Origin: Thermoplasmatota archaeon
Lineage (GTDB): Archaea > Thermoplasmatota > Penumbrarchaeia > Penumbrarchaeales > Penumbrarchaeaceae
Assembly (NCBI GenBank): GCA_029762535.1
Contig: JARVGK010000014.1
Coordinates: forward strand, 8,750 to 72,749
DNA length: 64,000 bases
Direction: 5' to 3'
Below, in pieces: positions 2,670 to 21,479 of this stretch. Below the pieces are notes generated by a model. It was not told where the DNA came from, ran no database searches, and saw only the letters and a program-made list of their open reading frames with translations. The position numbers were made by a program, and so were the translations under genes. Position 1 is the stretch's first letter; the number at the start of each line of letters is the position of its first letter.

Positions 2670-3307
2670 GGACCGAGAAGATACTGTAATGTATTATAGA
2701 TTGCTGGTACGGTCGAAAGCTCCTGCACGATTTGGTACGAAAATCACAGCAAGGTTTGGTATACTGATTTGCATACCTCTGCCCAACGATGACGTGAAAT
2801 TGACGCTCCGTTGGGCTCGGAACATGCCAATGTAATTGGCAGGTTAGGTGAAATAACATCAGTTATTTTACGACTATTTCGAAGTCCCGTATCAAAAAGA
2901 TCTTGACGCAAGGGACTTACGAAAAAACCCGACTATAATTTTCATACTATGATGTGATATTCTAGCTTATGAGGGTTTTTTATGGTCTTTTCGACCCATT
3001 TTACCGATCTTGTCACATCTCTCAATTTTGACCATACCGTTACAACGACTTTCCATCAGGAAGGACCCATTGAAATATATAGAGACGAGGTAGGACAGGG
3101 AGGTCATCCGCGGGGCGTGTCATAATCTTGATAACATCCGGAACAAGGGATGAAGCCTATCACTGGGCTGAAGGATCCCGGGAAAGGAAGATGGGCGTGA
3201 TCATGGCTAAGTTAAGTGCTGATAACGAGTAATTCGATCCCGATCGAGGGCAACAAGATAAAAGTTTATAAGGAGGAATTTTAAGAAAAAAACGCTAAAT
3301 AGTAATG

Positions 3308-3410
3308 TATATATAGTGGTTATAAATATATTTTCGATTAGTTTCTTATAGTCCTATTTCATTTAAATAATCCTCTTTTAAAAACGCATGTTTTTAAAAA
3401 GGTATAAATA
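3308..3410 (+). promoter_or_regulatory. Conserved ~100-bp promoter/operator element, copy A
   Basis: Aligns without gaps to 13593-13695 (hand count about 84/99 identical, with 31 nt perfect at 3376-3406). Inverted repeat TTTTAAAAAC-GCAT-GTTTTTAAAA abuts AAAGG-TATAAATA (BRE/TATA-like). Confidence 0.8.
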
Positions 3411-3434
3411 TGGTGGATTAAAATATCATTTCTC

Positions 3435-3512
3435 ATGAACGACAAGCGTGAGAAAAGAAGTAAAAACCACATCAGAGGGGATATTTTCCCGGCTCTGATA
3501 TGGCAACTATAG
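3435..3512 (+). CDS. Putative 25-aa peptide MNDKREKRSKNHIRGDIFPALIWQL
   Basis: ATG about 25 nt after the TATA box of element A, at almost the same spacing as the real start at 13719 after element C. Basic N-terminus and hydrophobic C-terminus. Confidence 0.35.
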   Translation: MNDKREKRSKNHIRGDIFPALIWQL

Positions 3513-3561
3513 TATTGATCTAATTGTCTGACATAAATAAAGAAAACAGAGGTGTGAAAAC

Positions 3562-4881: not shown

Positions 4882-5012
4882 TAAAGATCGTATATGAACA
4901 TTTGAGGTGTCTTGTAGAAGATATGAAGGTCCCTCGAAACTCGGGGGACTTCATAACATAGGAAGAAGGAATATGCCAGCCATATACCCTTTCAACGAAG
5001 GAAAGATAAATA

Positions 5013-8000
5013 ATGGAACATATGATGAGTAACATGAGATCGATGATGGCGGTCAAAATCAGTGTGGTCGCCATCATCCTTTTTTTCTCTTTTTTTAGCA
5101 TTTACCCTAGTGGGGCCCAAGATAATCCCTACACAAAGGGCAGTGGAACACATATCGATCCCTACGTCATAGAGGATGTGTGGGATCTCCAGAATATGAC
5201 CGATGACTTGAGCACCCACTACGTTCTCGGCAACGATATCAACGCTTCCGATACGATCAACTGGAACTCTGGCGCTGGTTTCTATTCGATAGGAAACGCA
5301 AACTCACCTTTTACCGGAAGCCTTGACGGGAGGAACCATACCATAACAGGATTGTTCATTCACCGCCCCGGAACAGACCATGTTGGTCTATTCGGGTATA
5401 CTGGATCTGGGGCTACAGTCGAACGGGTGATCCTTGTGGATCACTTTGTTAAAGGAAGCAGATATGTAGGCGCGATTGTTGGATGGAACGAAGGAGGTGT
5501 TGTCTCGGACTGTGTGGCTTCGGGAACAACAATGGTAGATATTCATTATCTAGGAGGTGTTGTTGGAATTAATCGAGGGGGCATAATATCAAACTGTTCC
5601 TATAAGGGGATAGTAGACGGAAAGGCGAATGGCTTACAATCTATTGTCGGGGGTATAGTAGGATTAAATGAAAATGGCATAATATCGAACTGCGATATGC
5701 AGGGTAATATAACCAGTAGAAATTATGCGGGTGGGATCGTCGGGGATAATGTCAATGGCATGATCTCCAACTGTTATGTGATGGGGAGTGTGAGGGGGAG
5801 TCAGGTTGTGGGTGGAATAATTGGAGCCGATGGGGGTACTGTTGAGCATTGCCAATCCTCAGCTGATGTTAGAGGATCAAGGAACGTCGGTGGTCTTATC
5901 GGATGGAAAAGCGGCATTGTGTCCAATTGTTATTCGACTGGAAATGTTAATGCAAGCGACCATGGTGCGGGTGGTCTGATAGGAACTTTGGCTCAAGGTA
6001 TTGTTTCTGACTGTTGGTCAACGGGACATGTATTATCTGGTCGCTATTATGTAGGAGGTTTGATCGGAAGCAATTATGGTAGAATATCAAATTGTCATTC
6101 CTCAGGTAATGTTGTAGGAACCAAGGAGGTCGGAGGATTGGTGGGTAGGAACGAAGGTCGGATATCCAACTGTTATTCGACTGGAAATGTCACTGGTAGA
6201 ATTTCCATTGTAGGTGTTGCAGTTAGTTCTTTAGGTGGTTTGATCGGTTACAACGGTGGCAAGGTGTCCAACTCGCATTACAGCATTGAGAGGGTATCGA
6301 TAAACGGCGGTGAACATCTCACGATTGGGGGGTTATTCGAAGATCAATACCTGAACTGGTTATCCAACGACCTTACTTTGGATATAACCGATTACGGATC
6401 CTCACTGGCGTTAAATGAGGGATATTATCATATCGATAACATTCAAGGAATCAGGGATATGCTGGGATTCGTTGATGATGAAGAATACAATTTCCGCTTT
6501 TCTTCTGATATTGATCTATCAAGCGCACCGGGTTTATACCTTCCATATTTTGGAGCATCGGAATTGGATGGCAACAATCATACTATAACCAACTTAAACC
6601 TTGATCTTTCATTTGTTTCGAATGTTGGTATGATCGGTTATAATTATGCTGGAAAAATAAAAAATATCCAGATGGTCAATATCAATGTGTCAGGTTATGA
6701 GAATGTCGGTGGATTGTTGGGTTGTAATCACAACGGTGTTGTATCAAATTGCTTTGCGTCAGGAACCGTTAACGGTGTAAATGATTATACCGGCGGTCTC
6801 GTTGGATTAAGTAGCGGTACGATATCCGGTTCTTCTGCTTTTGGAATTGTTAAAGGAACCGGATCATCTAAAGGTGGTCTTGTAGGTTCGAATAATGGGA
6901 GGATATCAGACTCTAATTTCATTGGAAATGTGACCGGTAATGGCGCTTCGGGTGGATTGGTTGGTTCTAATAGCGCTATTATCTCCAACTGCTATTCCAA
7001 AGGGGATGTGAAAGGTGGAAACAATATGGGCGGATTGGTTGGGTCAAATGGCGGTAGTGTTTCCAATAGCCATTCTGAAAGTAACGTGATGGGAAGATCA
7101 CCTGTTGGTGGATTAATGGGTTATAACTCAGGTAATGTTATCTTTTGCTATGCATCTGGAGAAGTAACAGGTAAAGATTGTGTTGGTGGGCTTATTGGAT
7201 CTAACATAGGAAGCGTTACAAAATGTTATGCTACCGGTAATGTAAGGGGATCTTGGGTAGTGGGCGGGCTCATAGGTTCTAATGGATTATGTATTGTATC
7301 CAACTGCTACTCGACTGGGAAAGTTATCAGGATTTCTGGAAATACTACGAACTTCGGCGGATTTGTTGGATTAAATGAGGGACAGATAATCAATTCGTAT
7401 TCAACGGGTAGGGTTATCTACAATGGTAGTAACGATCCCACGGATAAGGGCTTTGCAGGAAATATATATGAATATGAAGAATACGAGATGAGAGGGAATT
7501 TCTGGGATAACGAGACCAGTCTGCAAACGACCACATCCGGTGAAGCTATCGGAATGAATACGACCATGATGAAGACGAGGAAGACGTTCACTGATGCTGG
7601 TTGGGATCTCAGATTTGTCTGGTGCATGATAGAGAAGGTAACATATCCCTTTCTCAGGTGGCAGGATACGAAGCGTCCCATTGCAGATGCCGGTCCTGAT
7701 CTGATCGTTGATGAAGGCACTTTTGTAGAATTTGATGGTAGCGGAAGTTATGACGATAGGGGTATAGCGGATTATTTATGGAGTTTTATCGATAACAAAT
7801 CTGTTACGTTGTATGGAGTCAAACCTGCGTATCAGTTTAACAATCCCGGAATTTTCATAATCACATTAAATGTCCAGGATGCAGTAGATACTTGGGGATC
7901 TGACACCATGACAGTTACTGTTTTGGACATATCCCCGCCATCAGCGAATGCTGGTCTTGACCTGATCGTAGATGAAGGAACCATTGTGACATTCAACGGG

Positions 8001-9131
8001 AATGGATCATATGACAACGTGGGGATCGTCAACTACACATGGACATTTATCGACAGGGATCCCATCGTCCGCTACGGGATCGATCCCGGCTATCGATTCG
8101 ATACCCCGGGAGTTTTCATTGTTACATTGAACGTTAGCGATGCCGCTGGTCATTGGGCCACCGATACGATGACTGTAACAGTTAGGGACATCACCGCTCC
8201 AATAGCAGTTGCCGGTCCAGATCTGACTGTCGATGAGGGAACTGTTGTATATTTTGACGGGAGCGGGAGTTTCGACAACGTGGGGATCGTGAACTGGACC
8301 TGGACGTTCGTTGACGGGGAAATAATAATGCTCACCGGGATGGATCCCAGCTATCGGTTCGATACACCGGGAGTTTATACCGTTGTTCTAAACGTCACCG
8401 ACGCCTCTGGACATTGGGGCGTCGATTCCATGATCGTCACTGTTTTGGATATTACGGCACCTAAGGCCGTTGCCGGTTTGAACAGGACCGTGGATGAGGG
8501 TACCGTTGTTACCTTCGACGGGAGTGGCAGTTATGATAATGTCGGGATCGCGAACTACACATGGACGTTCATCGACGGGGATCCCATCGTTCTCTACGGG
8601 ATCGATCCCAGCTATCGGTTCGATACTCCGGGGGTTTACATTGTTACATTGAACGTCAGCGATGCTGCTGGACTTTGGGCCATAGATTCATTGACGGTAA
8701 CGATCAGGGACATCACACCACCTGTAGCTGATGCAGGGGAGGATCAGGCCATAGAAGAGGAAGATACGGTCCAATTCGATGGAAGCGGAAGCAACGACAA
8801 CGTCGGGATCGTCAATTATACCTGGAGCTTCTACGATGGTTCGAGCAGTGTCATGCTCTATGGGATCTCCCCCTCCCATACCTTCTCGATCTCAGGGATC
8901 TATGTCGTCACATTGACGGTGAAGGATGAGGCGGGGAACGAGGGATCCGATACGATGAAGGTAGAGGCCAAGGAGAAAGAAGGAAATGGTATCGTGGACG
9001 ATCCTATCGATCCTTTGTTGATCATAGGCTCCATCATCTTGCTGGCGGGGATCATTATTCTGGTTTTTTTCCTGTTTTTACGTGGGAGGAACAGATCACC
9101 GGATGAAGGATCTCGATGGTTGGAAGAATGA
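5013..9131 (+). CDS. Cell-surface protein with GLUG repeats, 5 PKD domains and a C-terminal TM anchor
   Basis: Signal peptide, many VGGLVGxNxGxISNCYSTGxV repeats, five ~87-aa P.A.AG.D..V.EG..V.FDGSGS.DNVGI..YTW repeats, hydrophobic C-terminal anchor. The start may be one of the next few Mets. Confidence 0.9.
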   Translation: MEHMMSNMRSMMAVKISVVAIILFFSFFSIYPSGAQDNPYTKGSGTHIDPYVIEDVWDLQNMTDDLSTHYVLGNDINASDTINWNSGAGFYSIGNANSPFTGSLDGRNHTITGLFIHRPGTDHVGLFGYTGSGATVERVILVDHFVKGSRYVGAIVGWNEGGVVSDCVASGTTMVDIHYLGGVVGINRGGIISNCSYKGIVDGKANGLQSIVGGIVGLNENGIISNCDMQGNITSRNYAGGIVGDNVNGMISNCYVMGSVRGSQVVGGIIGADGGTVEHCQSSADVRGSRNVGGLIGWKSGIVSNCYSTGNVNASDHGAGGLIGTLAQGIVSDCWSTGHVLSGRYYVGGLIGSNYGRISNCHSSGNVVGTKEVGGLVGRNEGRISNCYSTGNVTGRISIVGVAVSSLGGLIGYNGGKVSNSHYSIERVSINGGEHLTIGGLFEDQYLNWLSNDLTLDITDYGSSLALNEGYYHIDNIQGIRDMLGFVDDEEYNFRFSSDIDLSSAPGLYLPYFGASELDGNNHTITNLNLDLSFVSNVGMIGYNYAGKIKNIQMVNINVSGYENVGGLLGCNHNGVVSNCFASGTVNGVNDYTGGLVGLSSGTISGSSAFGIVKGTGSSKGGLVGSNNGRISDSNFIGNVTGNGASGGLVGSNSAIISNCYSKGDVKGGNNMGGLVGSNGGSVSNSHSESNVMGRSPVGGLMGYNSGNVIFCYASGEVTGKDCVGGLIGSNIGSVTKCYATGNVRGSWVVGGLIGSNGLCIVSNCYSTGKVIRISGNTTNFGGFVGLNEGQIINSYSTGRVIYNGSNDPTDKGFAGNIYEYEEYEMRGNFWDNETSLQTTTSGEAIGMNTTMMKTRKTFTDAGWDLRFVWCMIEKVTYPFLRWQDTKRPIADAGPDLIVDEGTFVEFDGSGSYDDRGIADYLWSFIDNKSVTLYGVKPAYQFNNPGIFIITLNVQDAVDTWGSDTMTVTVLDISPPSANAGLDLIVDEGTIVTFNGNGSYDNVGIVNYTWTFIDRDPIVRYGIDPGYRFDTPGVFIVTLNVSDAAGHWATDTMTVTVRDITAPIAVAGPDLTVDEGTVVYFDGSGSFDNVGIVNWTWTFVDGEIIMLTGMDPSYRFDTPGVYTVVLNVTDASGHWGVDSMIVTVLDITAPKAVAGLNRTVDEGTVVTFDGSGSYDNVGIANYTWTFIDGDPIVLYGIDPSYRFDTPGVYIVTLNVSDAAGLWAIDSLTVTIRDITPPVADAGEDQAIEEEDTVQFDGSGSNDNVGIVNYTWSFYDGSSSVMLYGISPSHTFSISGIYVVTLTVKDEAGNEGSDTMKVEAKEKEGNGIVDDPIDPLLIIGSIILLAGIIILVFFLFLRGRNRSPDEGSRWLEE
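7675..8965 (+). repeat. Five tandem PKD-coding repeats of about 261 nt
   Basis: Recurring gacaacgtggggatcgt / ctatcggttcgatac blocks at 261-nt period. Confidence 0.85.
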
Positions 9132-9311
9132 GATCGAAAACCCTCTTGTATTATTCAGCACTGTGTTTTTTGTGGTTCACAAAGACCTCGAACATCTGGG
9201 GGGTGGGGAATATGAGCCGGGGGACCAATACCAACCGGATAGTGCTGCTTAGAAAGCCTGAAGGAGCTTGATAAGGGAAAACCGTAAATAATCACTCTAT
9301 TCTCATCTCTC

Positions 9312-10127
9312 GTGAACGATGCCTACGAGCGATTGAAAGGGATCCTCTCGCAGATGGGATCCGCCGTCCTTGCATTCTCCGGAGGGGCGGACAGCACCCT
9401 GCTGCTCAGGGCGGCCCTGGACACTTCCGGCTTTGTCGTGGTCCCGGTGACCGCCGTGTCCTTGACCTATACGAAGGAGGAGATCGAGGAGGCGCGGCGC
9501 CTCGCTTCATCGATGGGATCCGAACTTATCGAGATCGACACCTCGGAGATGGAGGATCCCTCTTTCTTGAAAAACGGACCGGACCGATGCTATCACTGCA
9601 AGAGGGAGCTGTTCTCGCATCTGTTCTCGATAGCCCGCGAGAGGGGGATCGGACACGTCATTGACGGCTCCAACCTCGATGATATGGACGATCACAGGCC
9701 CGGGTTTCGTGCGGCAAAGGAAATGGGCGTGGGGCATCCCCTGCAGGAAGCGAGGATCACCAAAGCGATGTTAAGGGACATCTCCCGAGATCTGGGCCTC
9801 TCCACATGGGACAAGCCGTCGGCGGCTTGCCTCGCGTCGAGGATCCCATACGGAAGCGGGATCACCGCCGAGAAGCTCGAGGCGGTGGGGAGAGCGGAGA
9901 GCATACTCAAAAGGATGGGTTATAAGCAGGTCCGGGTCCGGCATCACGGCAATATCGCCCGCATAGAGGTGGGAAGAGAGGAGATGATGCAGCTAATGGA
10001 AATGAGGGAGGAAGTGGTATCCTTCATCAAGGAGCTGGGATTCTCCTATGTCACGCTCGATATCGAAGGGTTCAGGAGCGGGAGCATGAACGAGGTCCTC
10101 GATATCAGGCCCAGCCCCTCTCCTTGA
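9312..10127 (+). CDS. larE: ATP-dependent sulfur transferase, LarE family
   Basis: PP-loop AFSGGADS, RCYHCK, DGSNLDD..DHRPG, ACLASRIPYG, VRVRHHG, GFRSGSMN. Confidence 0.9.
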   Translation: MNDAYERLKGILSQMGSAVLAFSGGADSTLLLRAALDTSGFVVVPVTAVSLTYTKEEIEEARRLASSMGSELIEIDTSEMEDPSFLKNGPDRCYHCKRELFSHLFSIARERGIGHVIDGSNLDDMDDHRPGFRAAKEMGVGHPLQEARITKAMLRDISRDLGLSTWDKPSAACLASRIPYGSGITAEKLEAVGRAESILKRMGYKQVRVRHHGNIARIEVGREEMMQLMEMREEVVSFIKELGFSYVTLDIEGFRSGSMNEVLDIRPSPSP

Positions 10128-10515
10128 GGGCGATCCCCAGAGCGAGCATGATCATGCTCTCCGGGATCTCCTCGTAGGTTTCTCCGCATGCATCTATCGT
10201 CCTGCAATTGGATGATCCGCACACGCCGGAGCAGGGGCTGGATCCGGTAGTGGCTCCTATCCAGTCCTCTATCCTCTTCCCGTCTATCAGTATCTCGTTC
10301 GAGAGGAGAGGGTCCTTCTCGAAGCGCTCTTTGGGGATCTCCTCCTGATGGAGATCGACCTTGATCCTCTTTGGCTCGAGGAGGGCGTTGACCTTGGCGA
10401 CGGCGCTTTCAATGTTCTCTCCTGTCGAGGAGCAGCGCCCGCAGGTGGACCCGTTCTCGACGAGCCTCCTCCACTCGACGATTATCGTGCGATGCATGCG
10501 CGGGTCATCGAACAT
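10105..10515 (-). CDS. DUF2703-like Cys-rich protein
   Basis: TCGRCSSTG, SNEILIDG..IEDWIG, SPC..VCG..CRT, ETYEEIP pattern. Confidence 0.75.
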   Translation of the reverse strand: MFDDPRMHRTIIVEWRRLVENGSTCGRCSSTGENIESAVAKVNALLEPKRIKVDLHQEEIPKERFEKDPLLSNEILIDGKRIEDWIGATTGSSPCSGVCGSSNCRTIDACGETYEEIPESMIMLALGIALKERGWA

Positions 10516-10626
10516 CTATTATTTATCGTTCATGGAGGTGATCGGCAGGATCCATCCAGTGATCTTGAATGTCAAAGAACGATAATAATATATCTTGATG
10601 TGAGGATTTATGGTCTGGGGCATCGA

Positions 10627-11967
10627 ATGAATGTAAGGACCGACGATATCATACTATTCTCTATAGGTTATCTTAGAGGCAGGCAGAAAGAGGTTCCATC
10701 GTTGGACAAGAGGAAACTCTCCACAGCCCTGGACATCAAGACGGATACCCTTAACAAGAGACTCTCGGAGATGAGGAGGGCGAAGATCCTCGAAAAGCAG
10801 AGGATCGATGGCGTCTGCGGTCATGTCCTGACCGGGATCGGCCGTGAGCGTTACAGGGAGATCCACAAGAGGATCATGGACCTCGAGCTGAGACCTGACC
10901 TTCATTCCGTCTCTGAACTCTGCCGTCTGGGCGATGTGATAGAATATCTGAGTGATCCGTACAACGTCGTCCGCGTTGCATACTGCGTATCGAGATCGAA
11001 ACCCCTGGATGCGGTGCACCTGATCCAGGACGACAGGGCGATGCGTCCAGGTTCGAAGGAGAACGCGATGATCAACGAGCTGGTGCTAACCGATGGGAAG
11101 GCGGACCGTTCGATCAACGACCTCATCGAGGAGCTGACACTCGTTGGAAAGAGAGGGCCCGCTCTTGAAGACCCTCGATCGTTCGATTCGGTGCCCTATG
11201 CGATAATCTCTGCCGAGATGAAGATGCGCAGGGGATCCGATCTCGAGGCGATGGCGATCTATGGGTCGCTACTCAGGGACAGGGCCGGTCTTGATCCCGC
11301 GTATTGGATATTCTGCATAATCGGGATCATCAAATGCACGAAGGTCCTTGAGGGGCAGGAAAAGGCGCTGGAGCTCGTTGAGCGGTCCCTTTATGCGGTC
11401 AAGGACCCCGCCTTCAGGGCCATGCTGAACAAGAACAAGGGAGATATACTGCAGGACATGAAGAGATATTCCGAGTCGGAGGAGACCTACAGATCGGTCC
11501 TTATGGCATTGAAAAGGCTGCAAATGCCAAATCTGAAAGTTATGGTATTGAACAATCTCGGAGTACTTTATTTCAGACAAGGCCTGGAAGATAAGGCCAA
11601 AGATCGCTGGAAGAAGGCCCGGACGATATCGGTACGGGAGGATCTGCCCTGGGTCGAAGCGATATGCAACGTCAATCTATCTGATGTCTATGCCCGTGCG
11701 GGTCAATTCAAGAACGCAAAGGAGCTGTTGAGTAAGTCGAAGCAGTACTTTCTCAGCATCAACGATCTCGAGGGACTATCTGGATATGATTTCAACATGG
11801 CCCTGGTTTGTGTCGAGGAGGGCAATCGGGACCTTGCCCTTCATTATTTCAGCCGATGTGAGGATTTTCCCCTACAGTATTTGAAGAAGAGGGCCGAGAG
11901 GAGGGCCGTGCTGATCGAAAGGTTCGAGAGAAGGGGATGGGAAAAACCCTTTGATGCAAATATTTAA
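10627..11967 (+). CDS. Winged-HTH plus TPR-repeat regulator, paralogue 1
   Basis: Start reassigned to ATG 10627 by alignment with paralogue 2. N-terminal wHTH ends ..HVLTGIGRE. C-terminal TPR helices include LNNLGVLYFRQG, NVNLSDVY and DFNMALV. Confidence 0.8.
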   Translation: MNVRTDDIILFSIGYLRGRQKEVPSLDKRKLSTALDIKTDTLNKRLSEMRRAKILEKQRIDGVCGHVLTGIGRERYREIHKRIMDLELRPDLHSVSELCRLGDVIEYLSDPYNVVRVAYCVSRSKPLDAVHLIQDDRAMRPGSKENAMINELVLTDGKADRSINDLIEELTLVGKRGPALEDPRSFDSVPYAIISAEMKMRRGSDLEAMAIYGSLLRDRAGLDPAYWIFCIIGIIKCTKVLEGQEKALELVERSLYAVKDPAFRAMLNKNKGDILQDMKRYSESEETYRSVLMALKRLQMPNLKVMVLNNLGVLYFRQGLEDKAKDRWKKARTISVREDLPWVEAICNVNLSDVYARAGQFKNAKELLSKSKQYFLSINDLEGLSGYDFNMALVCVEEGNRDLALHYFSRCEDFPLQYLKKRAERRAVLIERFERRGWEKPFDANI

Positions 11968-12065
11968 ATAGTGGGTATATAAAATTAATTCAAAGGATAT
12001 AAATAGTCCGAAAGAATATATAAATGAAAATGGTTCTTTGCGCATCTTTCGAAAGATATATCATC
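11963..12065 (+). promoter_or_regulatory. Diverged copy B of the downstream element
   Basis: Shares TAAATAGTGG.TATAT, ATAGTCC, ATATATAAATGA and CGCAT blocks with copy C in the same register. Carries a different perfect palindrome, ATCTTTCGAAAGAT (12044-12057). Confidence 0.6.
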
Positions 12066-12084
12066 GAATAGAAAATCTCGCTTG

Positions 12085-12159
12085 ATGTACGAACAAGGGG
12101 TAATGGAGCTGGAATGGATGCACTTCATCCCAACCATACGTGATCCACAGTTGAGATAA
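12085..12159 (+). CDS. Putative 24-aa peptide MYEQGVMELEWMHFIPTIRDPQLR
   Basis: Small ORF between the two TPR genes, starting about 25 nt after the TATA-like ATATAT of element B. Confidence 0.3.
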   Translation: MYEQGVMELEWMHFIPTIRDPQLR

Positions 12160-12253
12160 GGGTCCATTCATCATGTGGATAGATGAATTTGAATACTTGG
12201 GATAATAACGATAGAAATATATCATCGATGTTGTATTCATAGCAATAGGGTTA

Positions 12254-13597
12254 ATGGTGAATGTAGGAACGAACGACCTCATGATCTTCTCGATAGGATA
12301 CCTGCGAGGCAGGCAGAAGGAGGTCATGCCGATCAATAAGAAGCAGTTCGCAGAGGTCCTTGATGTAAGCGGCGAGACCATCAACAGGAACCTCGCCACC
12401 ATGAGAAAGGTTGGAATGATAGTCAAGGTGAAGAAGGACGGCGTCCTGGGCCATGCGCTTGCGGAGAAGGGCCGGGAACGCTACAGGGAGATCCACTCCC
12501 GGATGATGGATATGGACCTCAAGCCCGATCTGCATTCCGTCTCTAACCTCTGCCGACTGGAGGATGTCATAGAGTATCTGAGGGATCCCTACCACATCGT
12601 TCTTTTGGCATATTCGGTATCCAGGGGGAAGAAGCTTGATGTCGTGGACCTGATCAGGCTGGATCGGGCCAGGAGGCCGGGGTCCAAGGAGAACGAGATA
12701 ATAAACGAGCTTCTGCGGACCAAGGGAAGCGTCGGACAGTCCATGAACGAGCTCATAGAGGACCTCACCCTCGTCGGAAAGAAGGACCCGGGGATCGGCG
12801 ACGATCTGGATTACGACTCCGTGCCCAACGCCTTGATCACCGCCGAGATGAGGATACGCCGTGGCAGGGACCTGGATGCCAGGAGAATATACCAGACCCT
12901 CCTCAGGAACAGGGCGAAGCTGGACCCCGCTTATTGGATCTTCTGCATCATCGGGCTTATAAGATGCACCAAGGTGCTCGAGGGCCAGGAGAGCGCCCTA
13001 GAGCTCGCGGACCGTTTCCTGGAAACGGTCGAGGATCCCGCCTATAAGGCGATGTTGAAGAAGATCAAAGCGGACATACTTCAGGACATGAAGAGGTTTA
13101 AGGAGTCTGAGGAGACGTATAATTCGATAATCAAGACGCTAAAGAGGATAAATATGCCTCATTTGAATATGATGGTCCTGAACAACGTAGGGGTACTCCA
13201 CTTCAGGCAGGGTAGGGAAGATAAGGCCGTCGATTGTTGGAAAAAGGCCAGGACAATTGCTGTCAAGAATGACCTCAAATGGGCGGAAGCGATATCCAAT
13301 GTTAATTTATCAGATACTTATGCAAAGGAAGGAAATCTAAAGACTGCAAAAGAGATATTAAGAAAGTCTAAGAAAATATTTGAGAAGATCGACGATCAGG
13401 AAGGGATGTCAGAGTACAATTTCAACATGGCTCTTGTAACTGTAGAATATGGGAACCGAGAGCTTGCGCTGGATTATTTCAAACGCTGCGAGGATTTCCC
13501 GCTTCAGTACAGGGAGAAGAGGGTTGAGAGAAGAGAAGTCATCAACGAGAGGTTCGAAAAGAAGGGGTGGGAAAAACCCTTTAATGGAAAACTATAA
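12254..13597 (+). CDS. Winged-HTH plus TPR-repeat regulator, paralogue 2
   Basis: Colinear with 10627-11967 (FSIGYLRGRQKEV, PDLHSVS, LDPAYWIFCIIG, RCEDFPLQY, GWEKPF). Confidence 0.85.
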   Translation: MVNVGTNDLMIFSIGYLRGRQKEVMPINKKQFAEVLDVSGETINRNLATMRKVGMIVKVKKDGVLGHALAEKGRERYREIHSRMMDMDLKPDLHSVSNLCRLEDVIEYLRDPYHIVLLAYSVSRGKKLDVVDLIRLDRARRPGSKENEIINELLRTKGSVGQSMNELIEDLTLVGKKDPGIGDDLDYDSVPNALITAEMRIRRGRDLDARRIYQTLLRNRAKLDPAYWIFCIIGLIRCTKVLEGQESALELADRFLETVEDPAYKAMLKKIKADILQDMKRFKESEETYNSIIKTLKRINMPHLNMMVLNNVGVLHFRQGREDKAVDCWKKARTIAVKNDLKWAEAISNVNLSDTYAKEGNLKTAKEILRKSKKIFEKIDDQEGMSEYNFNMALVTVEYGNRELALDYFKRCEDFPLQYREKRVERREVINERFEKKGWEKPFNGKL

Positions 13598-13695
13598 ATA
13601 GTGGTTATATATATTTTTCCGATTAATTTCTTATAGTCCTATTTTATATATAAATGATATTTTTAAAAACGCATGTTTTTAAAAAGGTATATATC
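13593..13695 (+). promoter_or_regulatory. Conserved element, copy C, with 11-bp-arm inverted repeat
   Basis: TTTTTAAAAAC-GCAT-GTTTTTAAAAA (13660-13685), then GG-TATATAT, then ATG 13719 about 25 nt later (leaderless-type spacing). Confidence 0.8.
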
Positions 13696-13718
13696 AAAAA
13701 CCCCGGATAAATTATTCC

Positions 13719-14405
13719 ATGACCCGAAACCACCTTCTCCTGATGATCAGTACGCTGACAATCCTCGCCTTTGCGATCCCCCTTCTCGAAGGAGCGGATG
13801 CTGAGGCGACCGAGGACATGAAGAGCCTTGTGATAGTGTCCGGATTCGGAGGATACTCCGTTCATGAGCTGGACAAGGCCGCCTCCTTCCGGTCCCATCT
13901 TCTCGATTCATGCTCGCAGGACGACATGGTCTATCTGACCAAGGCCGGAATATTCGGCTCCGACGGCACCGCAACGGTAGCTAACCTCGAGGACGCCTTC
14001 GAGTGGCTGATCACCGTCAGCGGACCGGAAACCAGGGTCGCCGTATACATAATGGACCATGCGCAGATGATCAACAATCAACCCCATTTCAGGTTCGAGG
14101 ACGGATCGATATCCGCTTCCACGATAGATGGGTGGCTGGACCAGATATCATCCTCCGATATTACCATCATATTGAACGGAGAGAGGTCCGGCCTTGGGGG
14201 GCCCTCCCTCGCTGGGTCCTCCAGGGACGTGATCTGCTCCATGATGTCGAGCCAGACGTACTGTCCCGACAACTTCGACATCGCAAGAAGCCTGGGAGAT
14301 CCCGCTGCGGACTCCGATGACGACGGGACCGTGTCCTACATCGAGGCCTTCAATTACGAAAAGGCCCGGATCCAGAGCACGGGACAGGTCCCGATCCTCT
14401 GCTGA
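13719..14405 (+). CDS. Secreted caspase/C13 (clan CD)-like protein, catalytic Cys apparently absent
   Basis: Signal peptide, TATVANLEDAFEWL, YIMDHA (His site), ILNGERSG at the expected xxCxSG site, ADSDDDGTVSYIEAFNY. Confidence 0.6.
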   Translation: MTRNHLLLMISTLTILAFAIPLLEGADAEATEDMKSLVIVSGFGGYSVHELDKAASFRSHLLDSCSQDDMVYLTKAGIFGSDGTATVANLEDAFEWLITVSGPETRVAVYIMDHAQMINNQPHFRFEDGSISASTIDGWLDQISSSDITIILNGERSGLGGPSLAGSSRDVICSMMSSQTYCPDNFDIARSLGDPAADSDDDGTVSYIEAFNYEKARIQSTGQVPILC

Positions 14406-14407
14406 AG

Positions 14408-15652
14408 ATGCACAACATCGACGTGAACGAGGATCCCAAGGGACGGGAGCTCTTCAAGGCTTCCGCTCCCGTTAAGGCCAGCGAACGCTTTATCGAACAT
14501 CACCAGAACGGATCCGCATCGGTCCTGACGCAGCGAAGCATATGCACCCAGGACCTCGGTCTGATACTCCTCGATCCCGAAGACAGGGTGCCGACCGACG
14601 AGGTCATCAAATATCACGAGACCCGCTATCGAGCCATCGTCGAGAACAGCATGGACAACATATACATATGCGATGCCGACAGCGGAAGGGTGATCGAGTC
14701 CAACGGTTCCATGCAGCGCCTCCTTGGATATTCCAGGGGGGAGATGGAGCGCATGACGGTGTTCGATTTCCTGGACCATCCCAAGGACGATGTCAAGGCC
14801 TTCATCCAGCGCATTTTCGAGAAAGGGACCCTGAAGATCAAGGACAGGCGCTACAGGAGAAAGGACGGCTCCCTTGTGGACATCGAGGCGACCTGCTGCG
14901 CGATCGATGAGGGGGGAAGGCGTCTCCTCTGCGTCGTCTCAAGGGACATGCGTGAGATCAAGGAGTACGAGAAAAAGCTCGTCGAGGAGAGGAACAGGGC
15001 CGAGCTCTACCTCGACATACTCGGCCACGACATAGGTAACCTACATCACGGCATAATGGGGTTCGTGGGCCTGTGCAAGCAGTTCGAGGGCGATCCCGAA
15101 AAGCTTGGATGCTACATCAACAGCATAGACTCCCTGACGATGAGGTCGGTCCACCTTGTGCAGAACCTGAATTATCTTTCGAGCATCGCATCCCAGCCCG
15201 AGGAGCTGGTGGAGATCGACCCCGGCGCCGTGATAAGCTCCTGCATCGAAACGGTCAGAGGATCGATCCCGTGGAAGGCCCCCGTCTTCGAGGTGGATAT
15301 GCCCTCGGACATCACCGTCATGGCGGATCCCAACATAGAGCATGCCTTCTACAACATCCTCCACAACGCTGTGAAGTACCAGGATCCACAGATGCCCCTG
15401 ATAAAGATCACGTCCAGAGAGACCGGGGACGGCTATCTGCTCATAAGGGTCAGGGATTTCGGTCGGGGGATCCCGCCCTCGATGCAGAGGGAGGTCCTGA
15501 ACAGGACCGACCTGAAAAAGAAGCATGGGGGGCTGGGGCTCTCGGTGGTCAGAGCATTAGTGGACCGGTCCGCAGGGAACGTCTGGATCGAGGATCCCAA
15601 TGACGGCAAGGGGGGTGTCATCGTCGTCATAGAGCTTCCCGTTTACATATGA
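14408..15652 (+). CDS. Cytoplasmic PAS-domain sensor histidine kinase
   Basis: PAS domain (YRAIVENSMD..RRKDGSLVDIE), H-box ILGHDIGN, N-box NILHNAVKY, DFGRGI, GGLGL. Confidence 0.9.
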   Translation: MHNIDVNEDPKGRELFKASAPVKASERFIEHHQNGSASVLTQRSICTQDLGLILLDPEDRVPTDEVIKYHETRYRAIVENSMDNIYICDADSGRVIESNGSMQRLLGYSRGEMERMTVFDFLDHPKDDVKAFIQRIFEKGTLKIKDRRYRRKDGSLVDIEATCCAIDEGGRRLLCVVSRDMREIKEYEKKLVEERNRAELYLDILGHDIGNLHHGIMGFVGLCKQFEGDPEKLGCYINSIDSLTMRSVHLVQNLNYLSSIASQPEELVEIDPGAVISSCIETVRGSIPWKAPVFEVDMPSDITVMADPNIEHAFYNILHNAVKYQDPQMPLIKITSRETGDGYLLIRVRDFGRGIPPSMQREVLNRTDLKKKHGGLGLSVVRALVDRSAGNVWIEDPNDGKGGVIVVIELPVYI

Positions 15653-15697
15653 GATCCCACCTGCAAAGCTCTTAAGGGTGTTCTACGCTTCCCCGGC

Positions 15698-16480
15698 ATG
15701 GGCAGATTGACGATGATAGGCCTCGGGATCTCCGACGAGAGGGGGATCTCCATCGAGGGCCTGGAGCGGCTCAAGGGCGCTGACGCGGCCTTCGCGGAGT
15801 TCTTCACGTCCATACTCACAGAAGGGTCCATGGAGCGCCTGGAGGCCCTGTGCGGAAGAAGGATAGAGATGCTGGACAGGAAGTGCGTCGAGGACGAGGA
15901 CCGGATACTCTCATCGCTCAGGGAACATGAGGATGTCTGCTTTCTCACGGCCGGGGATCCCCTTGCCGCCACAACGCATCAGGAGATCCGGCTCCGATCC
16001 CTCAAGGCCGGCCACAGGGTGGATGTCATCCACTCAGCATCCATATACACGGCCGCGGCCGGGGCCGCGGGGCTGCAGCATTACAAGTTCGGGAGGACGA
16101 CCACGATCCCCTTCCCAGAAGGGGATTACCTGCCCACGTCCCCTCTCGAGATCATCTTGGAGAACAGGGAAAGGGGATTGCATACGTTATGCCTTCTCGA
16201 CATTCAGGCGGATCGGGGCAGGTACATGACCGTTCATGATGCATGCTCGGTCCTTATCCAAATGGCCGGGAAGCTGGGAACCGAAAAGATCGATCCCACG
16301 ACGATGGTCGTGGGGATCGCCAGGGCGGGGCGAAATGACGCGAAGGTCGCCTTCGCCTCCCTCTCCGCTCTTCTATCAGAGGACATGGGCGATCCACCGC
16401 ACTGCCTCATTGTTCCGGGAAGGCTCCATTTCATGGAGGAAGAGATGCTAGATCTCTTCAGGATCGGGCGATCCGGATAG
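15698..16480 (+). CDS. dph5: Diphthine synthase
   Basis: IGLGI, AEFFTS, GDPLAATTH, GLQHYKFGRTTT, GLHTLCLLDI, PPHCLIVPGRLHFMEEE. Confidence 0.95.
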   Translation: MGRLTMIGLGISDERGISIEGLERLKGADAAFAEFFTSILTEGSMERLEALCGRRIEMLDRKCVEDEDRILSSLREHEDVCFLTAGDPLAATTHQEIRLRSLKAGHRVDVIHSASIYTAAAGAAGLQHYKFGRTTTIPFPEGDYLPTSPLEIILENRERGLHTLCLLDIQADRGRYMTVHDACSVLIQMAGKLGTEKIDPTTMVVGIARAGRNDAKVAFASLSALLSEDMGDPPHCLIVPGRLHFMEEEMLDLFRIGRSG

Positions 16481-16488
16481 GATCCCCC

Positions 16489-18150
16489 TCAGGGGACGAT
16501 GAAATTCTTGGTCGTGGCCATGACGAGAAGAAGGACCGTTCCGAGTAGGATGCCGATCCTTGATAGGTTGTAGGCTTTTTCCGTCATGCGGCCTGTGCGC
16601 TCGTTCCGTCTCTGGCTCCATGCCAGGCCGAAGGCTATCAGCGATAGCGGCATGAATATCAGACCTGCGAGGGAAAGCTTGTAGGCTAGCTTTGAATCCC
16701 TTTCTATGTTGATCTTCGAATTCGCGGGACCTTCCCTGAGGTCCACCCATTCGACCTCTCCCTCCTCGAGAACCTTCAATCTCTCGATGATGTACCACTT
16801 CTCCCGCTTGGCACCCGGTCGGTAACCACCCATAAGGGCCTTCTGGAGAACGGAAAAAAGCCATTCCACGCTGCCGATGAACCCGATCCTCGACCAGAGC
16901 CTAAGGATGAGGTCCCAGTATATCACTATAAGGGCCGTGACCACGAGGGTCGTCGTGAAACCGTCCTTTGACCCGAAGACCGTCACCCCTGGTATCAAGG
17001 AGAGCACGAACCGCAGCGGTGAGTCGAAGTATTGGAACGTGTATACGGTGAGCGAGGCGATCGCGAACCGTCTGACCGGGGTCAGGGTCCTCGCGAATAC
17101 CTTAGAGGCGCCTCTATATTCTATCAACCTCAACATTAGGAATATCAGAGCGATCTGGCCTCCCACCGTGAATATCATCAACGGAAGCCAGGCGTTCATC
17201 TCCATGATGAGATAGGTGTTGTCCTTCAAATTGGTCCATGAATCCAGCCCCATATACCAGAACCCGACAAGGCCGAGGAGGCCGGTCACGGTCAGGGCGA
17301 GACCTGCGAAGATGCCCTTCTTGGCCATCGTTACGGGAGGCCGGTCCATCGAGAGCATGGTGCCGATGGCGCATCCTATGAAAGCGAAGAAGAGGAACGG
17401 AAAGAGGGGCTCGGTCTGTCCTGCAAGGGGCCCAAGAAAGAACAGGACGACCATCTGAAGAGGCCCCGTCACCCCTTCTAGCGGATACTGGACCATACGA
17501 TCGCTCCCGGGATAGGTGGCGAGCGGGTATCCCGGCACCACCAGGTCGGCCAACTCCCAGGCGAGCGGGGTCAGAGCGAGCACCAGAAGGGCCAAAAGCA
17601 CGAAGACCTTGACGTTCCGGCGGTCCATCCTGAAACCTCCTTTTCGGTATAGCGACCACTGGACAAGTGAGCATATGATGATGCTCCATGCGATCGTATG
17701 AAGTGTCATGAAGTGGAATCCTCTGAAGAATATCCTGGGCGCATACCTCTGAACGACATCGAGGAAGGAAGCATCGCCGCTTGGATCGAAGTAGGCGACC
17801 CTACCTATGAACCCGTGATGCCCGAGGGTGGACTCGATCGCGAAGGCGAACACCAATAGTAATATGCCGCCCACTATCTGTCTGATGATGACCTTGTTCA
17901 GGTCCCGTCCCTTCTTCAGCTGCCCTCTCGATGAGAGTATGTGTGAGATGATCGATATCATCAGGAACAGTCCGGTGAATCCGCTCAGGTAGGCAAGGCC
18001 CAATAGGAACATGACGTCGATCATCATGAGGTCTCCGGACCGTTCAGATGAGATGAAGGACCGGTCGAAGACAGCCGAGAACGTATGGGCGCACACCATG
18101 AGCATGATGCACAACCCACGCACAAGGTCGATGGTTAGGATCCGCTTCAT
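16489..18150 (-). CDS. Multi-pass membrane protein, transmembrane acyltransferase-like (DUF1624/HGSNAT/AT3 superfamily), paralogue A
   Basis: N-terminal RILTIDLVRGLCIMLMVCAH, PLFPFL, many TM segments. Confidence 0.7.
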   Translation of the reverse strand: MKRILTIDLVRGLCIMLMVCAHTFSAVFDRSFISSERSGDLMMIDVMFLLGLAYLSGFTGLFLMISIISHILSSRGQLKKGRDLNKVIIRQIVGGILLLVFAFAIESTLGHHGFIGRVAYFDPSGDASFLDVVQRYAPRIFFRGFHFMTLHTIAWSIIICSLVQWSLYRKGGFRMDRRNVKVFVLLALLVLALTPLAWELADLVVPGYPLATYPGSDRMVQYPLEGVTGPLQMVVLFFLGPLAGQTEPLFPFLFFAFIGCAIGTMLSMDRPPVTMAKKGIFAGLALTVTGLLGLVGFWYMGLDSWTNLKDNTYLIMEMNAWLPLMIFTVGGQIALIFLMLRLIEYRGASKVFARTLTPVRRFAIASLTVYTFQYFDSPLRFVLSLIPGVTVFGSKDGFTTTLVVTALIVIYWDLILRLWSRIGFIGSVEWLFSVLQKALMGGYRPGAKREKWYIIERLKVLEEGEVEWVDLREGPANSKINIERDSKLAYKLSLAGLIFMPLSLIAFGLAWSQRRNERTGRMTEKAYNLSRIGILLGTVLLLVMATTKNFIVP

Positions 18151-18161
18151 GTAGGCTCACT

Positions 18162-19526
18162 TCATCCGGAAGCATGGCCACTGGCCATCACATCGAATCC
18201 TTTGGCCTTGATCCTCTGCCTGTACGATAGACTGATACCCAAAAGAAGGCGCGAGCTTTGCCAAATATTAGTATATTTCCTCATCTTCCATCCCCTTTTC
18301 AGTATGTTCTTCCACGAGTAGAACTCGGTGAGGACATGGCCGTGGCCGGCCTCGAGATCCTTTTTAGTCATCAATTTCGGTTCGAAAACGACATGGGAGT
18401 AATCGTACTTGGTCCAGTCCCGGTCCACGATCCTCCCGGTCCTGTTCCATTTATCGAACAGGTCGCTTCCGGGAAGCGGGGTAAGTACGGTCGCCTGTAG
18501 TGTATCGACGTTATTCTCCAGTAGGAACCTTAATGTCCGGTCGAAGACCTCTTTGGTGTCATTGTCATGTCCGAAGACAACGCTCGCCATGATCATGATC
18601 CCATTTTCATGCAGTTTTTTTATTAGACCTGGATATTCCTCTGGTTCGAGGAAACCCTTCTGGTCCTCTTTCAATGCTTCCTTTGAAAGGGATTCCAGAC
18701 CCATGAAGAGTGCCTTGAAACCGCAATCAACGGCTGCCTTCAACAGTTCATCATCATAGGCGATCGTGATGGATGTCTGGCCGAAAAAGGTCTTTTTCAG
18801 CGGGGTCAGGGCTTTGAACAGAGCGATCGCATATTCTCGATCGTAGGTCAGGTTATCATCAACGAACATAATGTATCTGCCAAGACCCTTAACCTCCCTT
18901 ACCACCTCACTCACGGGGCGTGTCCTGTGCTGATGTTTATACATAGAACAGATAGTACAGAAGCTGCATCTGTTGGCACATCCCCTGGTGGCCTGGACCG
19001 CATCAGCCAGCACATAGGAGCCTCTGTGAATGAGGCCCCTTGGGGGTAGAGGGAGGTTCCTGAGGTCCGCTCTGCCCAGGTCATATACCTTCTTCAGCTG
19101 CCCCCTCCTCCAGTCCTCCATCATCGTCGGAACGTTGGATTCGGCCTCTCCCACGCATATGGAGTCGCAATGCTGCAAGGCCTCCTCGATCATGGATGAT
19201 GGATGATAACCTCCAAGGATCACCGTCTTTCCACTCTTCCTGAACCGGTCAGCTATCTCATATCCCCTGGGAGCTACCGCTGACATCAGGGTCAAGCCGA
19301 TGATATCCGCATCGATGTCGAAATCGATCGGTTCTATGTCCTCGTCGACGATCCTCGACTCGACCCAATCAGGCATGGAGGCTACGACATACAGGCTCGG
19401 AAGCATGGAGAATCTGAAGTATTTGTTCTTGAACCTGGGCTTTCTATTTCGTTTAGCTCTTAGGAAATCCGCTGTCGGATTTATCAAAACGAACTTTACC
19501 CTTCTTATCTTCTCCTGGTCGTTCAT
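18162..19526 (-). CDS. B12-binding domain radical SAM protein
   Basis: LINP, VILGGYHPS, GEAE, ATRGCANRCSFC, FVDDN, GLES, TPLPGS. Start taken at ATG 19526; alternative 19556. Confidence 0.9.
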   Translation of the reverse strand: MNDQEKIRRVKFVLINPTADFLRAKRNRKPRFKNKYFRFSMLPSLYVVASMPDWVESRIVDEDIEPIDFDIDADIIGLTLMSAVAPRGYEIADRFRKSGKTVILGGYHPSSMIEEALQHCDSICVGEAESNVPTMMEDWRRGQLKKVYDLGRADLRNLPLPPRGLIHRGSYVLADAVQATRGCANRCSFCTICSMYKHQHRTRPVSEVVREVKGLGRYIMFVDDNLTYDREYAIALFKALTPLKKTFFGQTSITIAYDDELLKAAVDCGFKALFMGLESLSKEALKEDQKGFLEPEEYPGLIKKLHENGIMIMASVVFGHDNDTKEVFDRTLRFLLENNVDTLQATVLTPLPGSDLFDKWNRTGRIVDRDWTKYDYSHVVFEPKLMTKKDLEAGHGHVLTEFYSWKNILKRGWKMRKYTNIWQSSRLLLGISLSYRQRIKAKGFDVMASGHASG

Positions 19527-19826
19527 AGGAGGTTTCGACCGTGCTCCGTATTCCATGATCATCCCTCTTGATCCAATAGAAATACAGGTTGATGCCGTCG
19601 GCGATCCTTTTAGAAGGCCAAAGGATCTTTTTTTGGTCCTCTTAGCCAAAACTTGATTCTATTATGACACTCTTCGTTGATGGTACTTATGAAGATCTTT
19701 CTATAAAAACGTATCATTATACCACCTGTCACGAATAAGGTTTCTCTATGAACCTAAAAAACATGAGGAATTTCAATAATTCCAAAGTGATAAATAGTCT
19801 TTTTTAGTATATACAACGGGGGAAAG

Positions 19827-21479
19827 ATGAAACGATTCGTCTCGCTCGATCTCATGAGGGGATTGGCCATATTCATGATGGTCATCTTCCATATACCCAT
19901 GAGATGGTATGACAGGAGTTGGATGGACTCGGGAGGCACCGTGGAGATACATCCCATACCCTTAGCATTGGCCCTGTCCATACTTTTTTTCGGAGCATGG
20001 GCGGGTTTCTTCCTGATGGTGAGCGCAGCGGCGAACACAATATCCATGCAGCGAAACCTCGAGAAGGGGAAGGGTCCGCTTAAGGTGATGCTCTTTCAAG
20101 TGATCGGAGGCCTTCTTCTCCTTGTCATGGCGTTTCTGGTCGAGTCCACCATAGGATATCATGGATATCTAGGGGAGCTCGTAAAAGGGAACGATCGTTG
20201 GGACATGGTCCTTTGGAGGGGTTTCCACATGGAGACGATACATACGATAGCCCTATGTATCATCTTGAATGGCATTGTCCATGGAATACTATCAATGAGA
20301 GGAGGCCATAAAAAGATGGGGCGAAATATCGCCATCTACGCCATATTGGCCATTATTGTTGTAGGACTTACTCCGGCCGTTTATGAGCTTTCGAGAGAGG
20401 CCTACACCGGATATCCCTTCAGGGAGTATGGTTCAGAACTCCTGGATCGAGATATCTACGTTCAGTATCCGGTCATAGGGGAGACCCCGGCTCCGGAGAT
20501 AGGCGTCAAATTCATTCTCATGGCTTTGGCGGGACAACCTGAGCCGCTGTTCCCCTACCTTGCGTTGTCATTCCTCGGAAGCATCGTCGGGATCGTTCTA
20601 ACATCTGGCGATAAAAGACGGAGATTACCCAGGTACGGGATTTTATCGGGTTTGTCCATGTTCATCGTTGGCGCGGCGGGATCGGGCTACGATCTGATGA
20701 CGAACGACAACGCATTTCCGATGCTGGCGGACCATTTCTACGAGATGCCCGGGCTATATCCGGACCTCTGGTTCTGGTGGTTCATGCTCATATCCGGGAG
20801 CTTCATAATGGCGATCATCCTGGTCCTTCGGCTTGTGGAATACAGGGGCAGGTCCAGGGAGTTCGCGGAAAGGACCCTGTTCCTCAGAAGGTACGGGTTC
20901 GTGGCGTTCACGGTATATACATATCAGTTCATCGACGTGCTGCCCAGACTGGGGCTTGAGGTTATCCCGGTGATCCATGCGCAATACCCATATCCTTCAC
21001 GTATGACATTCCTTCCGGTCCTTATTTTGGTACCGTTGACCGTAATACTATGGGAGTTCGTTCTGAGGACATGGGAAAAGGCGGATTACGTTCTTGGCAT
21101 GGAATGGATACTATCGAAGGTTTCGGAATACCTCATCCCATCACGCCGGGATCGGACCAACGATCGTTCAAAGTGGTGGATGACACCCAGGTTGAATGCC
21201 AGGGAATACCTCTATGAACCTCAGTGGATGGATATGATCGATAGAGAGGAGGTGGACCCTGCCCTGTTAAGGGACTCGAAGCTCGCCTTGATATTATCTA
21301 TGGCAGGTTTTACATTTCCCCTCCTATCTCCGATCGCCCTTCATCTCTCGAAAGCCTCATCGACATATGAGGGTTGGAACAAGTTCAATAGGGTAGCTGT
21401 CGCCATGAGTATATCATCCATACTTATTTGGATGGCCGTTTTGATCATTCTTCTATACGCACCCCCGGTCGTTATTTGA
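19827..21479 (+). CDS. Multi-pass membrane protein, transmembrane acyltransferase-like, paralogue B
   Basis: RFVSLDLMRGLAIFMMVIFH. Shares ESTxGxHG, RGFH..T.HTIA, LAGQxEPLFP, LRLxEYRG and RDSKLA with paralogue A. Confidence 0.7.
   Translation: MKRFVSLDLMRGLAIFMMVIFHIPMRWYDRSWMDSGGTVEIHPIPLALALSILFFGAWAGFFLMVSAAANTISMQRNLEKGKGPLKVMLFQVIGGLLLLVMAFLVESTIGYHGYLGELVKGNDRWDMVLWRGFHMETIHTIALCIILNGIVHGILSMRGGHKKMGRNIAIYAILAIIVVGLTPAVYELSREAYTGYPFREYGSELLDRDIYVQYPVIGETPAPEIGVKFILMALAGQPEPLFPYLALSFLGSIVGIVLTSGDKRRRLPRYGILSGLSMFIVGAAGSGYDLMTNDNAFPMLADHFYEMPGLYPDLWFWWFMLISGSFIMAIILVLRLVEYRGRSREFAERTLFLRRYGFVAFTVYTYQFIDVLPRLGLEVIPVIHAQYPYPSRMTFLPVLILVPLTVILWEFVLRTWEKADYVLGMEWILSKVSEYLIPSRRDRTNDRSKWWMTPRLNAREYLYEPQWMDMIDREEVDPALLRDSKLALILSMAGFTFPLLSPIALHLSKASSTYEGWNKFNRVAVAMSISSILIWMAVLIILLYAPPVVI

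Follow-up and report, generated by a model that had tools for sequence, protein, structure and literature searches.

A stretch of 64,000 nucleotides of DNA from a Thermoplasmatota archaeon, referred to below as the window, carries two tandem genes, P1 and P2, whose products join a predicted winged helix-turn-helix (wHTH) to an array of tetratricopeptide repeats (TPRs). P2 is followed by the gene of a secreted protein with a caspase/legumain fold in which the canonical catalytic cysteine is replaced, termed here a pseudo-legumain, and an AT-rich element lies directly behind each regulator gene. The best-supported picture is that of a new, lineage-specific family of wHTH-TPR regulators in obligate pairing with a pseudo-legumain, together with a promoter/operator module that has been copied in this genome. 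Taken as a whole, the reading that we favour, by a modest measure, is that the ancestral and conserved unit is a two-gene cassette (regulator, then pseudo-legumain), that the regulators are one-component factors driving the promoter of the adjacent pseudo-legumain gene, and that this promoter module was copied here to two more secreted-protein operons. An assembly of 2.96 Mb, 93% complete, contains the window on its contig C8. Thermoplasmatota MAGs are the nearest named relatives of its thermosome (79-83% identity); one of them is labelled EX4484-6, a class recently named Candidatus Penumbrarchaeia (PMC12220078), to which the host, an uncultured archaeon, probably belongs.

The two regulators, P1 (10627-11967, forward strand, 446 aa) and P2 (12254-13597, forward strand, 447 aa), are colinear and 63% identical. 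The Pfam profiles TPR_12, TPR_2, TPR_8 and TPR_1 exceed their cut-offs in the C-terminal half of both proteins, and the TPR_12 scores of 49.6 and 59.0 bits (cut-off 30.1) place them among TPR proteins. An AlphaFold model built with 12 family members as input (predicted local distance difference test, pLDDT, 83) divides the protein into three parts: a wHTH at residues 1-85 with the order H-H-H-beta-beta (local pLDDT 70-89), a helical linker at residues 90-175, of which 141-160 form a disordered loop, and a TPR superhelix at residues 190-436. Neither P1 nor P2 has a Pfam match to NB-ARC or AAA, and a Walker A motif is absent from all 12 family members. The initial annotation, drawn from the letters of the DNA and its open reading frames (ORFs), had described colinear paralogues with an N-terminal wHTH, a C-terminal TPR array and no ATPase domain, a description that holds, with the wHTH as a predicted fold. 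It had also remarked that the HTH is winged, unlike the XRE-type domain of the RRNPP receptors, and both the modelled fold and the profile matches, which are to winged types only, agree. These matches are to HTH_Crp_2, MarR_2 and HVO_A0261_N in Pfam (residues ~20-60, all sub-threshold) and to Lrs14 and Sta1 in NCBIfam, again weakly and below the curated cut-offs. Judged from the model, P1 and P2 look like lineage-specific archaeal one-component transcription factors with a TPR sensor of 6-7 repeats and no ATPase. In a phylogenetic tree, P1 branches outside a group formed by P2 and its orthologues from other species (support 93/92), so the tandem pair is no recent duplicate.

The conserved asparagines of the TPR helices (LNN, NVN, FNM), which had been likened to the peptide-binding asparagines of RRNPP receptors, are indeed conserved, but they occupy position 6 of the generic TPR helix-A consensus and therefore have no specificity for RRNPP receptors. 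They point to an extended peptide or protein segment as what is bound, as it is by KLC, LGN, Hop and the RRNPP proteins, and they do not in themselves identify the family.

Profile searches place ~80 full-length clusters (at 50% identity) in the regulator family. It occurs in 22 of the 23 genomes of one taxonomic family of Thermoplasmatota, with 1-10 copies per genome, and in none of 14 genomes elsewhere in the class, of which 37 species were examined. This genome has eight copies. The phyletic range of the partner family equals that of the regulator (21/23 genomes). Of 83 regulator places in the 23 genomes, 47 are followed immediately, on the same strand, by a partner gene; of 73 partner places, 47 stand behind a regulator, many of the exceptions being contig ends. 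On inspection of 27 full-length loci, the partner was found downstream at 19, with spacers from -28 up to 339 nt, and divergent partner-like genes occur at several of the other eight. The usual spacer is 17-122 nt, with overlap (down to -28 nt) at some loci, which leaves no space for a peptide gene at most of them. Orthologues at 62-68% identity are P0004 and P0006-P0008. Closer orthologous loci were sought in metagenomes by two scans, and none was found. At one further cassette of this genome (regulator C7:68217-69542), the partner gene (L004:2784-3302, 172 aa) has an internal deletion; the missing stretch runs from the His strand to the C-terminal helix, and the ORF as listed overlaps the regulator end by 28 nt. 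Partner-like genes without a signal peptide were seen at the loci L025 (G015:C209), L024, L021 and L006, with a tandem pair at the first of these, which points to cytoplasmic as well as secreted branches in the partner family.

The partner encoded in the window (13719-14405, forward strand, 228 aa) is a predicted secreted protein. Its structural model (pLDDT 88) finds its best Foldseek matches in metacaspase, caspase-7 and -6, GPI8, legumain and MALT1, and the matches to clan-CD structures (E 3e-6 to 6e-5, template modelling score <= 0.65) identify the caspase-hemoglobinase fold. The chain is collinear with legumain up to the strand that bears the histidine (VYISDH). Sequence profiles gave only metacaspase-1 as a weak match (E 0.06) and nothing in Pfam. 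The His114 of the catalytic dyad is kept, and the canonical Cys is replaced by Glu; this gene is the secreted, protease-like one of the initial annotation. The loss of the Cys runs through the family: no partner examined in either of two alignments (A4 and A5) has Cys at the canonical position, where the 14 sequences of A4 have E, I, Q, N, D or S and the divergent ones of A5 also V, K, M or R. The catalytic His is kept in 11 of the 14 partners of A4 and Asn in 3, and the His-Cys dyad of clan CD peptidases (C13/C14) is not found in the partner family. Most partners have a signal peptide, and some have none and would be cytoplasmic. A cluster of 303-aa proteins annotated as Uroviricota in the ESM Atlas shares a feature score of 0.95 with the pseudo-legumain (13719-14402). 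A phage or viral origin, considered on account of that cluster, was rejected, as neither regulator nor partner has a match in IMG/VR patterns or INPHARED records.

The PAS kinase gene reported behind P2 is present as well. It encodes a cytoplasmic histidine kinase (14408-15652, forward strand) and starts 2 nt past the partner gene. The kinase is kept behind the orthologous cassette in another genus (G036) and not behind other cassettes, a pattern that points to a unit of three genes confined to the P2 orthologue group. Neither this kinase gene nor its counterpart (L118:2241-3170) is adjoined by a receiver-domain gene.

A homologous AT-rich element runs on from the stop codons of both P1 and P2. 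The initial annotation had noted this arrangement and a third copy at 3308-3410; the copies in the window do align, and a search of the whole genome adds a fourth on contig C36, for exactly four copies. Copy 2, behind P2 (13596-13718, forward strand), has box A at ~13598, box B at ~13634 and a TATA box at 13687-13694. Copy 3 (3308-3434, forward strand; homologous core 3308-3410) has both boxes (ATAGTGG ... ATAGTCC), a palindrome of 10+10 nt at 3376-3399 and a TATA-like box. Copy 3 (3308-3410) shares 86-87% identity with copy 2 (13596-13700) over ~100 nt; the copy on the other contig (C36:135127-135231) is 95% identical to that behind P2. Copy 1, behind P1 (11966-12084, forward strand), is more diverged and keeps box A and box B. 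Two ATAGTSS boxes ~35 nt apart are thus common to all four copies, while the palindrome TTTTTAAAAAC-GCAT-GTTTTTAAAAA abutting the TATA box is kept in three of the four. In copy 2 this palindrome is perfect, with 11-nt arms and a 4-nt spacer (13660-13685), and adjoins the TATA box; in copy 1 a different palindrome, TCTTTCGAAAGA (12045-12056), occupies the equivalent place and runs into a core promoter 12-mer, ATATATCATCGA (12056-12067). A palindromic, promoter-like sequence after each regulator, as had been proposed, is accordingly what the alignment contains.

The spacing of these signals is regular. Box A lies 117-122 nt ahead of an ATG in all copies, and this ATG follows the TATA box by ~28 nt, so a leaderless or near-leaderless mRNA is predicted. 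The TATA boxes of the four copies stand at about 3400, 12060, 13690 and C36:135225. Among the cassettes, 10 of 11 spacers have a TATA-like heptamer 23-35 nt ahead of the partner start, a count reached by 2 of 200 shuffles; the partner would therefore normally have its own promoter just past the regulator stop. A second copy of the 12-mer ATATATCATCGA (12217-12228, forward strand) stands ~30 nt ahead of the P2 start, so that P2 probably has its own core promoter. The element copy after P1 is followed by the next regulator gene, and each of the others by a gene for a secreted protein. The element behaves like the promoter/operator of the partner gene, internal to the cassette, its palindrome adjoining BRE/TATA. 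A structured RNA or riboswitch in the element was considered and rejected, with fold z-scores of -1.4, +0.7 and -0.1 and no match in Rfam (E 0.1, 1-20000).

The two dispersed copies, copy 3 and that on C36, open with a remnant of the regulator 3′ end, which measures ~25-43 nt in copy 3 and 19 codons in the C36 copy. Nothing beyond these last codons is left, and the idea of a long regulator pseudogene ahead of the two was therefore rejected. Both run on through the element, the ATG, a leader of ~125 nt and a Shine-Dalgarno-like GAGGTG to the first codons of secreted proteins. Behind copy 3, this is a secreted protein of 439 aa of unknown family (3562-4881, forward strand), a candidate regulon member, with the co-oriented gene of a 1372-aa GLUG/PKD surface protein downstream (5013-9131, forward strand), possibly in one transcription unit. 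Behind the fourth copy, a secreted protein of 408 aa (C36:135363-136589) has, by eye, the look of a right-handed beta-helix with NosD/pectate-lyase-like repeats. Homology between the 439-aa and 408-aa cargo proteins was rejected; they are unrelated. In the other genus that has an orthologous cassette (G036, P0005), box A is present in the spacer together with an A5..T5 palindrome, and an ATG stands at the corresponding place, where it serves as the start codon of the partner; that genome has neither a tandem regulator nor extra element copies. The spacers of the other six cassettes of the present genome are not dispersed, apart from one near-identical short contig: C50:486-666 and C89:80-255 share spacer and regulator end at 95% identity over 176 nt and are probably a strain variant or assembly duplicate.

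Small ORFs accompany three of the element copies (24, 25 and 24 codons) and were found only there, in this genome. The 24-codon ORF after P1 (12085-12159, forward strand), to which the initial annotation drew attention, does exist, and it is placed at the position of the partner's start codon. The 25-codon ORF (3435-3512, forward strand) likewise begins with an ATG that is the homologue of the partner's start codon; it is probably incidental. When copy 3 is aligned with C36, the element is 84% identical, and the small-ORF region downstream of it reaches 54% and needs 37 gap columns. The encoded peptides have no signal peptide and no common motif. Decayed remnants of the partner were rejected as their source, a profile search of all frames in the three leader regions giving a best E of 1.5. 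Most simply, the small ORFs are by-products of copying the partner's start codon.

On the observed architecture, folds, synteny, element copy number and boundaries, and TATA spacing, we infer a mechanism that adds DNA binding to the element, a direction of regulation and a ligand. The wHTH of the regulator would bind the element, and the TPR groove would take an extended peptide or protein segment, so that transcription of the partner would be switched, and with it, in the P2 orthologue group, that of the PAS kinase gene directly behind. The module copied in this genome would comprise the last ~25-60 nt of the regulator gene, the element and the start ATG, and would have been placed ahead of two unrelated secreted-protein genes, with one copy at the head of the 439-aa gene and the 1372-aa GLUG/PKD gene. 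Such copying would yield a small candidate regulon, in which the copy after P1, with its different palindrome, would stand upstream of P2.

Several observations weigh against this mechanism. Binding of P1 and P2 to the element is deduced from position, and every wHTH profile match, in Pfam and NCBIfam alike, is below its curated cut-off. A shared operator motif across the cassettes, AAAAAYGC, picked out by eye, was tried and rejected, its presence in 8 of 11 sequences being no enrichment over a shuffle maximum of 7-10; the TATA motif alone is conspicuous. The mechanism does not explain what a protease-dead partner would do, and the lengths of the three small ORFs (24, 25 and 24 codons) are a mild coincidence if these are by-products. 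The dispersed copies could, moreover, be neutral scars of duplication or recombination, or a small mobile sequence, unconnected in regulation to P1 and P2, with only the native spacer serving as a promoter. Segmental copying predicts copies that start within the 3′ coding end of the regulator, as these do, and the dispersal is confined to this genome and this cassette, with four copies in all. Yet all copies are co-oriented and stand directly upstream of genes, the spacing from box A to the ATG is held at 117-122 nt at identities of 84-95% while the flanks have decayed, and neither terminal inverted repeats nor target duplications were seen. Two unrelated secreted-protein genes have gained the same module, including the Shine-Dalgarno region and first codons. 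We therefore regard neutral scars as quite improbable.

Two further explanations concern what the TPR array senses. In one, the TPR array would bind the caspase-fold partner itself or a substrate that it presents, by analogy with TPR-CHAT/Csx29 and further caspase-like proteins associated with TPRs, with the wHTH acting in autoregulation or the pair serving in stress or defence instead of the ordinary control of secreted proteins. Tight, near 1:1 gene linkage and the identical phyletic range of the two families would fit a protein-partner switch, as would the cytoplasmic partner variants, the multi-copy and diversifying character of the family, and the known theme of TPR and caspase-like association (CHAT domains; Craspase). 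Such a switch or conflict-type module is nevertheless unlikely: most partners would leave the cytoplasm, given signal peptides that look cleavable, and the catalytic Cys is missing in all members. Phage and viral-contig matches are lacking, and no other genes of conflict systems lie nearby. A known anti-phage defence system was rejected on PADLOC profiles, where neither the partner nor a second regulator has a match and the regulator P0002 has a weak generic TPR match (E 0.0075) only. The other explanation is RRNPP-like signalling, in which peptides from the small ORFs or from the secreted partner would be exported, re-imported and bound by the TPRs to gate the regulator, as in Rgg/SHP and PlcR/PapR. 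A layout of receptor and cognate small peptide gene was at the centre of the initial annotation, and here the comparison with homologues goes against it. The conserved neighbour is a pseudo-legumain of ~230 aa, which occupies the place behind the regulator at most family loci, where small ORFs are absent; they are also absent from the ancestral locus, with spacers of 17-122 nt or an overlap. Where they do occur, they form the least conserved part of the module, and their products share no motif and lack a signal peptide. The winged HTH is not of XRE type. In structure searches, the TPR fold matches Rap, PlcR and NprR no better than APC5, LGN and MalT, and in a profile search of solved structures Rap and NprR score below kinesin light chain. 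An SBP_bac_5/OppA-type binding protein had no match in the 93%-complete genome, in which controls matched in 11 of 14 cases. Some partners have no signal peptide, a poor fit with an obligatory extracellular signal. RRNPP-like signalling is, on these grounds, highly unlikely. A variant in which the cassettes are archaeal receptor-signal pairs is a long shot as well. Each wHTH-TPR protein would then sense a peptide that OPT transporters import and that comes from the short leader ORFs, or else from its own secreted pseudo-legumain, as a fragment or as a product; three OPT-family oligopeptide transporters are encoded in the genome (C36:73914, C47:95096 and C20:38077). What stands of the original proposal is its general outline, a ligand-gated module controlling secreted proteins, which is plausible given the HTH and TPR domains, the lack of an ATPase, the promoter-like element and the secreted cargo.

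The cassette of wHTH-TPR regulator and pseudo-legumain resembles several known systems in part. The RRNPP proteins (Rap, Rgg, NprR, PlcR, PrgX and AimR, of Bacillota and phages) have a TPR superhelix of 5-9 repeats, against a predicted 6-7 in the regulators described here, and by sequence profile they resemble these regulators no more than generic TPR proteins do. Their HTH is XRE-type, whereas the present one is winged and followed by an extra helical linker of ~90 residues; their neighbour is a propeptide of 20-60 aa, whereas here it is a pseudo-legumain in an archaeal host, with small ORFs that are not conserved. Membership of RRNPP thus fails because of the HTH type and the lack of a conserved adjacent propeptide gene. 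SARP-type regulators such as AfsR, with an OmpR-type winged HTH and a BTAD/TPR-like domain, share the order of winged HTH and TPR-like helical domain. Small SARPs have no ATPase, bind repeats beside the core promoter and activate adjacent cluster genes. The TPR region of AfsR is a weak NCBIfam match of the regulator (E 2.8e-5, far below the cut-off), but OmpR-type or BTAD homology is not detectable, the wHTH is nearest to archaeal Lrs14/Sta1 and to Crp/MarR types, and the context is that of archaeal TATA/BRE (B recognition element) promoters. STAND proteins with a TPR sensor (MalT; Pyrococcus PH0952, PDB 6mfv) carry a NOD/P-loop module that the present regulators, shorter by ~200 residues, do not have.

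The partner shares the caspase-hemoglobinase fold with clan CD peptidases (legumain C13, GPI8, metacaspase/caspase C14) and pseudo-orthocaspases; it differs from clan CD peptidases in never having Cys at the canonical position, in having no Pfam match and in its linkage to a wHTH-TPR regulator. In TPR-CHAT (Csx29) and CHAT proteins, a TPR array is functionally coupled to a caspase-like domain, a common theme, whereas here the two are separate polypeptides, the DNA-binding domain is on the TPR protein, the partner is protease-dead and in most cases secreted, and the setting is not a CRISPR locus. Catalytically dead caspase homologues are known from prokaryotes (PMC6426788). A literature search found no paper on RRNPP-type systems in archaea or on the pair of wHTH-TPR regulator and pseudo-legumain. 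From this search and to our knowledge, linkage of a pseudo-legumain to a wHTH-TPR regulator has not been described so far, and we know of no characterised transcription factor with a TPR sensor in archaea.

Around the cassette, the GC content of the window falls to 0.42-0.53 between 2000 and 14000, against ~0.58-0.60 elsewhere. This stretch spans the element copies, both regulators and the 439-aa and 1372-aa proteins, and may be an acquired or fast-evolving island of surface proteins. Further downstream lie the gene of an archaeal diphthine synthase (15698-16480) and those of two paralogous polytopic membrane proteins of ~550 aa (16489-18150, reverse strand, and 19827-21479, forward strand), which flank a B12-binding radical SAM gene (18162-19649, reverse strand).

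The regulator family is confined to one uncultured sediment lineage, where it reaches up to ten copies per genome and is nearly always found together with the pseudo-legumain. Should the TPR ligand prove a peptide, Gram-positive peptide sensing would have its first archaeal analogue in this family; if, further, the cassettes are receptor-signal pairs, they would provide multi-channel peptide communication or sensing in uncultured Thermoplasmatota, an independent analogue of RRNPP quorum sensing. As a regulon of two regulators and four promoters, the dispersed promoter module is open to test and offers a way to study archaeal one-component regulators at TATA/BRE promoters, and the copying of such a promoter cassette could show how regulons recruit new genes.

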